64,000 bases of DNA from an uncultured delta proteobacterium (GTDB lineage Bacteria > Desulfobacterota > Desulfuromonadia > Desulfuromonadales > JACZKF01), in contig CAWFKQ010000012.1 in assembly GCA_963816395.1 (NCBI GenBank), forward strand, positions 2,155 through 66,154, given 5' to 3'. Under the pieces are notes generated by a model. The model was not told the origin of the DNA and made no database searches. It worked only from the letters and a program-made list of their open reading frames with translations. This document shows, one piece after another, positions 13-2,797 of the stretch (position 1 is the first letter of the stretch; every line of letters starts with the position of its first letter). The translations under genes were made by a program, and so were the position numbers.

Positions 13-101
13 CGGTCCTTCCCGCCTGCGCGGGGAACATGGATAGACGTCTCTTCCACGGAAAATCCCTCTCGGTTCATCCCCGCCTGCGCGGGGAACA
101 T
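13..101 (-). CRISPR. Type I-E CRISPR array, leader-proximal end: 2 repeats and one 32-bp spacer visible
   Basis: Repeat 73-101 reads ATGTTCCCCGCGCAGGCGGGGATGAACCG (29 bp) on the minus strand, typical of I-E. Degenerate 28-bp copy at 13-40; spacer 41-72; adjacent to cas2. Confidence 0.93.
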
Positions 102-170
102 ACTTCCTCTATCTTCCGAAAATTATTCGGTTTTCAAAGAGCAAAATTTTCTACCAACTTTTTCACCCCA
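102..170 (-). promoter_or_regulatory. CRISPR leader (AT-rich)
   Basis: AT-rich tract between the cas2 stop and first repeat, with minus-strand AAGTTGGTAGA resembling I-E leaders. Confidence 0.75.
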
Positions 171-471
171 GATCAGCCCCGGAATCCGGTCCGTTTTCGG
201 GGAGAAAAGAAACCAATTTGATGCCCTCCATCTCCTTAGGGATGCGGCGGTTCGCCCCCAGGGTCTGGAAGTCGAAGCCGGACTCCGTATTGGTAGTCCA
301 GGCAATTACCGCATAACCACCTTCGATTCCTTTTTCAAGATTATCCCAGATCATCTCCCGCACCCGCCGCGAAACCTTGCCGACATAAACGCCGGCCCGG
401 ACTTCGAGCAGCCACAGGGCCAACCGCCCGCGCAGACGCGGAGGGACGTTTTCAACCACGATGACCAGCAT
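163..471 (-). CDS. cas2: Type I-E CRISPR-associated endoribonuclease Cas2
   Basis: [31 protein letters not shown]...[16 protein letters not shown] is the classic Cas2e sequence; 102 aa; ATG at 471. Confidence 0.96.
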
Positions 472-1375
472 CGCCGATACCCTCCTTGTTGGGAATGGCC
501 ACCTCGACGGCTTCCTCGTGCGGCTTGGGGACGGCGACCTCGCCGGCGGACAGGACCTGCTCGATGGTGGGGATGATCCGGTGCAGGATTTTCGTTTGTC
601 GGAAGGAGTCGCGGCAAGCGAGACGAACCTCCCTTTCCGGGTTATGAGGCTTTCTGGCGGCGATCCGGAAGGCGACCGGCACGACCGTCTCGAACTTGAA
701 GATATCAGCGATATCGTAGACGAAAGACTGCGGCTTGCCGGTATGGATGAACCCGACGGCCGGGGCGTAGCCGGCCGCGAGAATAGCCGCCTCGCTGATC
801 CCGTAGAGGCAGGCGGTGGCGGAGGAGAGGCAGCGGTTGGCGACGTCCCCGCTCCCCCATTCGGAGTGGTCGTAATTGCGTGCCCGCCAGTTGACCCGGT
901 ACTGCCGGGCGAGCAGCTCATACATCTTGCGCACCCGAGCGCCTTCGATCCCCCGCAGTTGCTGCACGCTGCGCCTCTCGGGCGGTTTTTCCTTGAAACG
1001 CAGCTCGTACATCTTGCGGACGACTTTCAGCCGCGCCGCATCGTCCAGGGCCAGCTTCGCCTGGTAGAGCAGGCGGTCGGCACGCGCCCCTCCCGGCTGC
1101 CCGGAAGCATAGAGCCGCACCCCCGCCTCCCCCACCCAGACCAGGAGGCACCCGACCCGGGAAGCGAGCGTCACCGCGGCATGCGATACCCGGATTCCCG
1201 GCTCCAGCATCATGCAGGCGACGCCCCCGACGGGAATGTGGGTGCGCACCCCGGTCTTGTCCACCAGGACGAAGGCGCCGTCGAGTACGTCGAGCTGACC
1301 GCGCTCGAGGAACAGGACGGAAACCCGGTCCTTCATGGGAATCGGTTTGAGTGGCGGCAGGATCGGTTCGGTCAT
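452..1375 (-). CDS. cas1: Type I-E CRISPR-associated endonuclease Cas1
   Basis: [11 protein letters not shown]...[15 protein letters not shown]...[11 protein letters not shown]...[17 protein letters not shown] motifs of Cas1e; 307 aa; ATG at 1375. Confidence 0.97.
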
Positions 1376-2509
1376 GGCGCCCCTCCTTCCCCGGCCTTTC
1401 TCCGGGCACGTTTCACCACGCCATACCCTTCCCTGCTCAACTCCCGCTCGATCACCTCGATGCTGGGGAGCGCTGATTTCAAATTGTCGGGAAGGGCGCG
1501 GGTCAGCTCGTACTCGGAGATGCCGATCGGCTGGACGACTCCGCGCAGCGTGTATTCGGCCAGCACGGCCTTCCTGTCCTGGCACAGTATGAGGCCGATG
1601 GTCGGGTTGTCCCCCGCCTGCCGCAGCCGGTCGTCCACGACATTGCAGTAGAAATTCATCTTGCCGGCGTATTCCGGCTTGAAGCCCCCCTTTTTCAGCT
1701 CGACCACCATATAGCAGCGAAGCCGCAGATGATAGAAGAGCAGGTCGATATAGAATTCGTCCTCCCCGACACTGAGCGGATATTGCCGCCCGACAAAGGC
1801 GAAACCCTGGCCCAGTTCCAGAAGGAATTTCTCCAGATGGCGGATCAGGCCGGTTTCCAGCTCCCGCTCGTGGAACGGCTCTTCGAGAGTGAGAAAATCA
1901 AAGATATACGGATCCTTCAGCGCCTGCTGCACCAGATCCGAGTGGGGGAGCGGCAGTCGCTCCAGAAAATTGGATACTGCTCTACCCTGCCGTTCGTGGG
2001 AGCGGCTCTGAAGCATGGACATCAGGACAGCCCGGCTCCAGCCTTGTCCAATAGTTTGCTGTATGTACCAGAGACGGGTTGGCAGGTCTTTGACTTTCTC
2101 CATGAGAAGGGCGTGGTGCCCCCAGGGGATGTTCCGGAGTATTTCTGCGGCGGTATTTGTGGCCAACGGCCTGTGGCACTTCTGAGGAAACCCTATTTTG
2201 TGCCACAGGCTGTGGCACAAATTCGCTGGTCCCGGAATATTCCCTATAAAACGCCAGCATACGCTTGATATTCCGCTCTGAAAACCCTTTTACCTCGGGC
2301 AGTTCGTTGCGAAGGTCGAGGGCCAGCCTGGGAATTACACCCGCTCCCCAGCCCTCCCGCTTCTGTCGTCCGTGAAGCATACGGCCGATGTCCCAGTACA
2401 TGCTGATCAACTCGGCGTTGGCGGCAAGTACGGCGCGGGTCTGGCCCTGACGGATGCGCTGCTTGATCTGGCCGAGCAGGTCAGCGTAGTGAACAAATTC
2501 GTTTGCCAT
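1372..2509 (-). CDS. DUF1016/YhcG family PD-(D/E)XK nuclease (one frameshift near 2165)
   Basis: N-terminal YWDIG...GWG...KGFSERNI and C-terminal KDPYIFDFL...FLLELGQGFAFVGRQ...IDLLFYH...VVELK...GKMNFY...NPTIGLILC motifs lie in two frames. RBS AGGAGG before ATG 2509; TGA overlaps the cas1 ATG. Confidence 0.9.
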
Positions 2510-2545
2510 ATTCCCCTCCTTGTCGCGACGCCCCTTCACCCGCAC

Positions 2546-2586
2546 GAAAAAAGCCGTCCAGCGGCAATCTGCCGAAAGGGCGGCTC
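2546..2586 (-). terminator. Terminator-like hairpin in the 5' leader of the yhcG-like gene
   Basis: Minus strand AGCCGCCC-TTTCGGCAGATTGCCGCT-GGACGGCT followed by a T run, about 40 nt upstream of ATG 2509. Confidence 0.55.
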
Positions 2587-2797
2587 GGTTAGATCCGTCC
2601 GGTGCTCCCTCCATTTCTCGACTTCCATCATTTCCCTCGCGCCGAGGAAAGTTCTCATTAAATATCTCCTGAGTTTTTATAGCAACCCCGGGGAAAACCC
2701 GCAATGGATATTTCCGCCGCGGTCTGCCGTGCAAATGGTCTGGACACCCCCGCCCCGCCTGGGCTATCCTCTGCCCCTGTAACCGCCGAGGATTGCC

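Follow-up and report, generated by a model that had tools for sequence, protein, structure and literature searches.

A YhcG/DUF1016 nuclease gene beside cas1e in a probably truncated type I-E CRISPR-Cas operon from an uncultured delta proteobacterium

The genome of an uncultured delta proteobacterium (GenBank assembly GCA_963816395.1) carries a short CRISPR locus near the start of contig CAWFKQ010000012.1 (C12). The locus comprises a YhcG/DUF1016 nuclease gene, cas1e, cas2e and a small array. It lies in the window, by which we mean the whole 64,000-nucleotide (nt) stretch that was analysed (C12:2155-66154); coordinates are those of the window unless another contig or record is named. It is a degenerate remnant of an ordinary CRISPR kind and holds a catalogued candidate defence gene. 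It is probably the adaptation-proximal remainder of a type I-E operon in which YhcG was embedded, as a passenger, after the final Cascade gene and before cas1e. A first-pass annotation of the window had placed the nuclease "in place of the effector genes", a proposal contradicted by the four other records in which a close YhcG precedes cas1e (L041, L132, L160 and L210): in all four, Cascade genes lie directly upstream of YhcG. YhcG is one of many interchangeable defence-island passengers of this position, referred to below as the slot, and is no replacement for the effector.

The genes of the locus lie on the minus strand in the order YhcG, cas1e, cas2e, putative leader and array. Family matches and the sequence itself bear out this part of the first-pass annotation, along with the ATGA overlap at 1372-1375 and the divergent AEC transporter. 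Intact cas1e (452-1375) encodes 307 amino acids (aa) and matches TIGR03638 (3.5e-115; 383.8 bits, cut-off 215.6), while cas2e (163-471), also intact at 102 aa and overlapping cas1e by 20 nt, matches TIGR01873 (2.4e-35; 120.5 bits, cut-off 33.15) and PF09707 (9.9e-36). By the TIGR03638 and TIGR01873 cut-offs both proteins are I-E equivalogs. The alignment of Cas1e to E. coli Cas1 chains of known structure spans the entire protein (2.6e-144), and E144, H211, D221 and D224, which we take to be the Cas1 catalytic residues, are kept. Repeats of about 29 nt adjoin cas2e, as in type I-E arrays, with a 61-nt A+T-rich stretch in the leader position (102-162, between the cas2e stop and the first repeat) that may function as the leader. 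The array has a period of 61 nt, made up of a 29-nt repeat and a 32-nt spacer. Within the window it consists of the leader-proximal repeat (73-101, 29 nt), a 32-nt spacer (41-72), which is one of the only two spacers, and a degenerate repeat of 28 nt (13-40) that is one base short, has mismatches at its spacer-distal end and is 92% identical to the 73-101 copy over 25 nt. The full array has three repeats, the degenerate one being the middle of the three; the third sits 20-48 nt left of the window, and a mazE/mazF pair lies beyond it. The 73-101 repeat unit recurs 22 times on contig C2 of the same assembly and once on contig C8.

The YhcG gene is full length but for one 1-nt frameshift, and so does not read as one uninterrupted frame. 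The part 3' of the frameshift (1372-2167, within an open frame of 1372-2220) encodes the end of the N-terminal domain and the PD-(D/E)XK nuclease domain; the part 5' of it (about 2162-2509) encodes the N-terminal helical domain in another frame. Across the two frames DUF1016_N (PF17761) is followed by YhcG_C (PF06250), both above cut-off, with the N part matching the former at 4.7e-24 and the C part the latter at 2.4e-65. A D...E-L-K motif (YIDLL...VVELKK) is visible, following the definition given for the YhcG nuclease domain in the relevant part of Feder and Bujnicki (2005, PMC1189080). Compared with the intact 399-aa orthologue of L041, the N part corresponds to residues 11-129 (60% identical) and the C part to residues 122-392 (72% identical). 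The two parts abut on this orthologue, so the gene has only one lesion, a 1-nt frameshift near 2161-2167. It may be a mutation or an assembly error, because a non-defence gene of the window is also frameshifted: a PaaK-like AMP-binding ligase (57007-58316, minus strand) lies in two overlapping frames, with AMP-binding at 57462-58316 and AMP-binding_C_2 at 57007-57576. Structural comparison was limited to an AlphaFold2 model of the L041 protein, built on a 44-row alignment, in which the mean predicted local distance difference test score was 60.7, the N-terminal domain was confident and the nuclease domain fell below 50; searches of the PDB for relatives by sequence and by profile gave no matches.

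Linkage of YhcG to cas1e recurs. Surveys were made of the best 80 genome loci and the best 80 metagenome loci, which are samples among the matches listed and not frequencies. At least one of the genome loci, L041, has cas1e and cas2e adjoining a YhcG like that of the window, in the order cas3 (C-terminal part)-cse1-cse2-cas7-cas5-cas6e-YhcG-cas1e-cas2e, with 47 repeats beyond. At least one of the metagenome loci, L210, reads cas6e-cas7-cas5-Bro-N fragment-YhcG-cas1e-cas2e. YhcG is preceded by cas7-cas5-cas6e in L132 and by cas5-cas6e in L160. Counting the window and C2, the copies number six and come from five assemblies or contigs. At the YhcG-cas1e junction the overlap of the window is found again on C2, and an 8-nt overlap or a 20-nt gap is found in L041 and L210. 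Adjacency of the two genes is not strict, because a gene of the 23S rRNA intervening-sequence protein family (IVP) intervenes in L132 and a Fic domain in L160. The L160 stretch 2145-3989 is a single frame of 614 aa that joins DUF1016_N, YhcG_C and Fic, as a natural fusion or by read-through; Bro-N, the RhuM N-terminus and Fic are likewise joined in L125. Among 40 relatives 10 have YhcG homologues, none more than 69% identical, and neither cas1e nor cas2e was found in the 1.5-kb flanks of their 16 loci. A Cas1e 79-86% identical to that of the window was recovered by tblastn in nine of 200 same-order genomes sampled. All nine have cas6e or cas5e upstream of cas1e, with Bro-N between in four, mazFE in two, an insert of about 850 nt in one (HigBA-like, as read by eye) and a direct junction in the remaining two.

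The slot was mapped more broadly in 80 loci with a Cas1e that shares 77-88% identity with that of the window; record titles are mostly of Thermodesulfobacteriota and Nitrospirota. Upstream Cascade genes and cargo were located in each, the cargo being counted by tblastn and family names being taken from Pfam. In 45 of the 80, recognised cargo separates cas1e from the last Cascade gene. A direct junction, with a gap of at most 350 nt, was found in 18, and seven have a gap above 350 nt without a match to the reference set (one of these is a Fic gene by Pfam). Four more have cargo on a contig too short to include Cascade, four could not be assessed, and two show no Cascade in the upstream sequence covered (4 kb in L143, 1.8 kb in L151). 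These last two, of the same Cas1e clade, have unrelated minus-strand genes upstream of cas1e-cas2e. The commonest cargo is Bro-N (32 loci), followed by IVP (7), RhuM, RhuM-N/Fic and Fic (5 each), YhcG (3: L132, L160 and L183, the last identical with L041), toxin-antitoxin pairs (3: ParE, MazEF and BrnTA), DEDDh exonucleases (2: L157 and L188) and KilA-N (1). All of it lies on the cas strand except MazEF and ParE. An alternative gene order, cas6e-cas7-cas5-cas1, occurs in 19 of the 80. In L196 about 2.3 kb (1650-3990) separates cas6e from cas1e, and its translations show a recurring repeat-like peptide, which suggests a CRISPR array placed in the slot.

Phylogenies of YhcG and Cas1e were compared. 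The six cas-slot copies of YhcG form one clade among 95 sequences, with ultrafast bootstrap and SH-like approximate likelihood ratio supports of 97 and 96, although the bootstrap had not fully settled. Five rows had been removed from the first YhcG tree, four for a stop codon in the matched stretch and one for too short a match. The first-pass annotation had asked whether cas1-linked DUF1016 proteins form a clade, and they do. The four YhcG loci do not group together in the Cas1e tree, which has 89 rows: they are scattered and require four changes, at least three of them forced by starred branches. This tree was quickly made from a protein that is very conserved, and many forks in it are open. 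The Cas1e of L183, a YhcG locus, is 97% identical to that of L185, which carries BrnT/BrnA cargo, and neighbours that of L176, which carries Bro-N. Taken together, the trees suggest that one YhcG lineage lives in the slot and that slot content turns over faster than Cas1e diverges. Such turnover could come about either by cassette exchange between I-E loci or by repeated replacement.

The overlap of YhcG with cas1e has a simpler source than a tie between the two genes. The YhcG stop TGA (1374-1372) overlaps the cas1e ATG (1375-1373), appearing as TCAT at 1372-1375 on the plus strand. In the Cas1e clade of the window the gene starts with ATG-ACN (Met-Thr). Of the 35 cas1e starts inspected 29 show ATGA, among them those of seven of eight cargo-free loci and of both Cascade-less loci (L143 and L151), and in L173 the stop codon of cas6e itself uses the cas1e ATGA. 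The overlap is not evidence of a YhcG-cas1e tie, because the ATG-ACN start supplies ATGA even where there is no cargo. It is a generic feature of the cas1e start that is inherited by any upstream gene in the right frame, and nothing about it is special to YhcG.

Families found in the slot are also found elsewhere as cargo of defence operons. A neighbour scan of 56 YhcG loci without cas genes, covering 101 of the 138 nearest open reading frames (ORFs), found a DNA methyltransferase or a type I restriction-modification (R-M) subunit as immediate neighbour at 29. The genome under study holds a YhcG paralogue in the arrangement hsdM-YhcG-hsdS-...-hsdR, and a second R-M operon (C4:94000-105000, L291) in which RhuM is placed as hsdM-RhuM-hsdS. 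In the latter operon a patatin and a DncV-like nucleotidyltransferase (CD-NTase), a CBASS-like pair, lie between hsdS and hsdR. KilA-N adjoins a methyltransferase in the same genome. A Bro-N gene, frameshifted and 80% identical to the Bro-N of I-E slots, lies between csb2 and cas4/cas1g of the genome's type I-G locus. In PADLOC, model PDC-S02 matches the C part of the window's YhcG at 8.2e-111, the N part at 4.5e-36 and the L041 orthologue at 4.2e-142. Other slot cargo is catalogued there as PDC-S13 (Bro-N), PDC-S05 (RhuM), PDC-S23 (RhuM-N/Fic), PDC-S22 (KilA-N) and SoFic (Fic). PDCs are described, in the main text of the source preprint, as genes that sit inside BREX, DISARM or type I R-M systems (Payne et al. 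2024, bioRxiv 10.1101/2024.01.29.577857); the word CRISPR is absent from that main text, supplements aside. In L041, L132, L160 and L210 YhcG is nested on the same strand inside a multi-gene defence system, as expected of PDC-S02, and the window keeps only the cas1-cas2 side of such a setting. Passages of two earlier papers report co-occurrence of DUF1016 with type I R-M domains (Steczkiewicz et al. 2012, PMC3424549) and RhuM-like and Fic/Doc genes in R-M operons (Anantharaman et al. 2013, PMC3710099). No description of a pre-cas1e cargo slot in type I-E was found in the literature on DUF1016/YhcG, RhuM, Bro-N or embedding with CRISPR, although the supplements of two preprints may list such genes.

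Bro-N is linked to cas genes beyond type I-E. At least 10 of 80 sampled Bro-N loci, among the matches listed, are cas-linked, and two of those are I-E. In L293, L294, L296, L299, L307, L310 and L324 a cas1 or cas4-cas1 that is not of type I-E has a close homologue of slot Bro-N immediately upstream. Bro-N/PDC-S13 may thus be tied to the boundary of the adaptation module in several type I subtypes. A tblastn comparison of four hsd proteins with the neighbours of Bro-N homologues gave no hits, with too few reference proteins to be informative.

Several observations weigh against the reading of the window as a truncated operon with a passenger. The YhcG surveys gave counts of at least one in 80, as samples among the matches listed. 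The PADLOC model "PD_DExK; CAS associated" also matches YhcG, at 2.4e-31. Monophyly of the cas-slot YhcG copies and their recurrence fit selective retention in I-E loci as well. DEDDh exonucleases, which PADLOC lists as Cas-associated, occupy the slot in two of the 80 loci, so the slot can hold a plausible adaptation factor. DEDDh exonucleases are DnaQ-like, are associated with I-E adaptation and have a role in prespacer trimming. In the intergenic stretch between YhcG and the transporter (2510-2797), which takes the place of cas6e/cas5e in related loci, tblastn found chance-level matches to Cascade only (E>0.1), and no deletion scar was found there; truncation is therefore inferred and not seen. 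Finally, the three I-E remnants of the assembly all lie at contig ends (C12, C2 and C8), and the bin may miss contigs.

Some of these points would fit YhcG as a dedicated, Cas4-like accessory of I-E adaptation that is translationally coupled to Cas1e and trims or selects prespacers, with the window as a working stand-alone adaptation operon, an idea raised in the first-pass annotation that we consider quite unlikely. Cas4 occurs in types I-A, I-B, I-C, I-D, I-G, II-B and V and has a RecB-like fold and a four-cysteine iron-sulphur cluster motif. Like Cas4, YhcG is a PD-(D/E)XK superfamily nuclease directly before cas1, where the I-G locus of this genome has a cas4/cas1 fusion; it also lies on the cas1e strand with a stop/start overlap, and canonical I-E loci, as the first-pass annotation stated, are without cas4. 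Of the first-pass reading the recurrent linkage and the single clade of cas-linked YhcG proteins are borne out, and the match to the Cas-associated PADLOC model and the DEDDh nucleases of L157 and L188 in the same slot also favour the idea. Other findings speak against it. YhcG is present in only three of the 80 Cas1e-clade loci, against 32 with Bro-N and others with RhuM, Fic, IVP or toxin-antitoxin genes, and near-identical Cas1e proteins have different cargo. An IVP gene or a Fic domain can part YhcG from cas1e, and the closest non-cas YhcG homologues adjoin R-M genes at 29 of 56 loci. Neither YhcG part matches the Cas4 families PF01930 and TIGR00372 at E<=0.01, and YhcG has a helical N-terminal domain of about 200 aa, unlike Cas4. 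The overlap is generic, and the YhcG of the window is frameshifted. According to the part of PMC1189080 that treats the family, the YhcG nuclease domain is nearer the YraN/archaeal Holliday-junction-resolvase type than the RecB type. What the first-pass annotation had said would refute its suggestion was largely observed, Cascade being contiguous in relatives and DUF1016 sporadic. The DEDDh exonuclease is of another fold and family than YhcG, and its presence in the same slot shows that the slot is not bound to one function.

The absence of Cascade genes and of I-E cas3 from the window, as the first-pass annotation had it, extends to the whole assembly, which consists of 16 contigs estimated at 98.9% completeness and 3.8% contamination. 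Searches of this one genome for the Cse1, Cas7e, Cas5e and Cas6e families (TIGR02547, TIGR01869, TIGR01868 and TIGR01907) found none of the four. Nor did tblastn with the cse2, cas7e, cas5e and cas6e proteins of related loci, of either gene order, give any match in the assembly at E<=1e-3; cse2 was looked for in this way only. No I-E cas3 was found in the assembly, the sole cas3_core match above cut-off being the type I-G cas3g of contig C8. Two other I-E remnants were found. One (C2:62-2113) shares 91% DNA identity with the window copy and has frameshifts in YhcG, cas1 and cas2; the contig start cuts inside its YhcG, and 22 repeats follow. The other, at the end of C8, comprises a 5' fragment of cas1e (about 180 of 307 codons), one repeat, mazFE and the contig end, and directly follows the type I-G locus and its 16-repeat array. 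The copies on C2 and C8 are 90-91% identical in DNA to that of the window. With their frameshifts and gene fragment, the C2 and C8 copies show a pattern of decay. The I-G locus (C8:203000-219112, L201) has cas3g, cas8g/csx17, cas7g, csb2 and cas4/cas1g beside its array, and is itself broken, with cas3g in two frames and cas4/cas1g in three. The possibility that C2 is a redundant strain copy was rejected, because after the first 2.1 kb of C2 nothing matches elsewhere except a paralogous stretch at 77-78%; the 101 nt after the arrays of C12 and C2, however, are 97% shared.

A Cascade-cas3 operon on unbinned or contig-end sequence could serve the arrays in trans, in which case the locus would be split or incompletely assembled. 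It is possible because all three remnants end contigs in an assembly of 16; moreover, C2 begins inside its YhcG copy, so that its upstream side is not covered, and the start of C12 looks like a foreign or chimeric join. That start (C12:1-1195) is very G+C-rich, contains a glycosyltransferase-like ORF and has an abrupt edge against the mazEF/array flank. We regard this alternative as unlikely. Four Cascade families and tblastn find nothing in a 98.9% complete assembly, and the other two copies are decayed. The window copy continues without a break past YhcG, through the transporter gene and on into some 60 kb of chromosome, and is therefore Cascade-less in cis. The first-pass annotation had mentioned a split locus with a passenger gene as the plain alternative, and this came closest: the embedded passenger stands, whereas the locus appears truncated and not split. 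A chimeric join of strain variants in the bin, at the YhcG-cas1 or the YhcG-transporter junction, would account for the arrangement as an artefact. Contamination of 3.8%, the 90-91% identical copies on C2 and C8, the chimeric-looking start of C12 and several frameshifted genes, the PaaK-like gene (57007-58316) among them, would be in keeping with it. This is highly improbable, given that the YhcG-cas1e junction is found independently on C2, L041 and L210 and that the rest of C2 has no twin of about 90% identity in the assembly.

The preferred reading, an operon truncated down to its adaptation-proximal end, may be set out as follows. A deletion would have removed cas3 and Cascade up to the start of YhcG, joining YhcG to the intergenic region of the transporter. 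What remained, next to a transporter gene of no relation to the locus, would be YhcG-cas1e-cas2e and an array that is shrinking. There is no Cas6e and no Cascade, and therefore neither crRNA (CRISPR RNA) processing nor interference would be expected; Cas1-Cas2 could at most still insert spacers. YhcG would be a PD-(D/E)XK nuclease that is autonomous and moves horizontally, belonging to the class embedded in R-M and other defence operons, and not an adaptation factor. It is presumably co-transcribed with cas1-cas2, because it lies inside the operon. A promoter and terminator scan of positions 1-3000 did not rise above shuffled sequence, with two promoter-like sites, both on the plus strand, and two terminator-like sites against 3.4 expected. 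Most likely YhcG is a defence nuclease in its own right, second-line or abortive in its action, or else a selfish passenger. PrrC, the anticodon nuclease embedded in the type Ic R-M system EcoprrI, provides a working model for the role of embedded cargo; it has no homology to YhcG, and control of YhcG by the Cas proteins, or sensing of their loss by YhcG, would be an analogy only.

Set beside known systems, the locus resembles canonical type I-E (cas3-cse1-cse2-cas7-cas5-cas6e-cas1-cas2-array) in its Cas1e and Cas2e matches, its 29-nt repeats and 32-nt spacers, and the leader beside cas2. It differs in having neither cas3 nor Cascade in cis, none being found in the assembly, in having two spacers, and in the extra gene directly before cas1e. 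"Guilt by embedding" genes (PDC-S02 and its relatives; Payne et al. 2024) are a close comparison through the PADLOC matches, the placement of cargo on the strand of the host operon except for MazEF and ParE, and the embedding of RhuM and YhcG families in type I R-M operons of this same genome. Here, unlike there, the host operon is type I-E CRISPR-Cas, since truncated in the window; the known class, as the main text of that preprint presents it, comes from Hma, BREX, DISARM and type I R-M systems.

The AEC-type transporter, identified by a family match, lies divergently at 2798-3742 on the plus strand. Farther on, at about 4600-4740 and just past a gene at 4016-4600, ORF translations show approximately six tandem 21-nt units, reading EPRTSNL or SRFEVRG by frame.

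A broader proposal is tentative, and we would put it somewhat short of an even chance. In type I operons the junction just 5' of the adaptation genes may be a hotspot of cassette exchange that shares families with those nested in R-M, BREX and DISARM operons, with a cas-adapted YhcG lineage moving between I-E loci and the cargo expressed with cas1-cas2 as a second layer of defence. In I-E the hotspot would lie between the last Cascade gene and cas1e, and in I-G and other type I loci before cas4/cas1. Its families would include YhcG/PDC-S02, Bro-N/PDC-S13, RhuM/PDC-S05, RhuM-N/Fic/PDC-S23, KilA-N/PDC-S22 and SoFic. If true, "guilt by embedding" would be extended to CRISPR-Cas, and Bro-N, found in 32 of 80 loci, would become a candidate for a true CRISPR-linked gene.

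The locus of the window shows no new, effector-free mode of CRISPR adaptation. It also offers a caution for gene-neighbourhood evidence, since a stop/start overlap of the kind seen here stems from a conserved ATG-ACN start. The wider pattern is useful to a modest degree. More than half of the examined loci in a widespread I-E clade have extra genes wedged before cas1e, and the wedged genes belong to families that also count as anti-phage candidates because of their nesting in R-M, BREX and DISARM operons. They provide natural operons in which to ask if such cargo works together with the host immune system, backs it up or merely rides on it.

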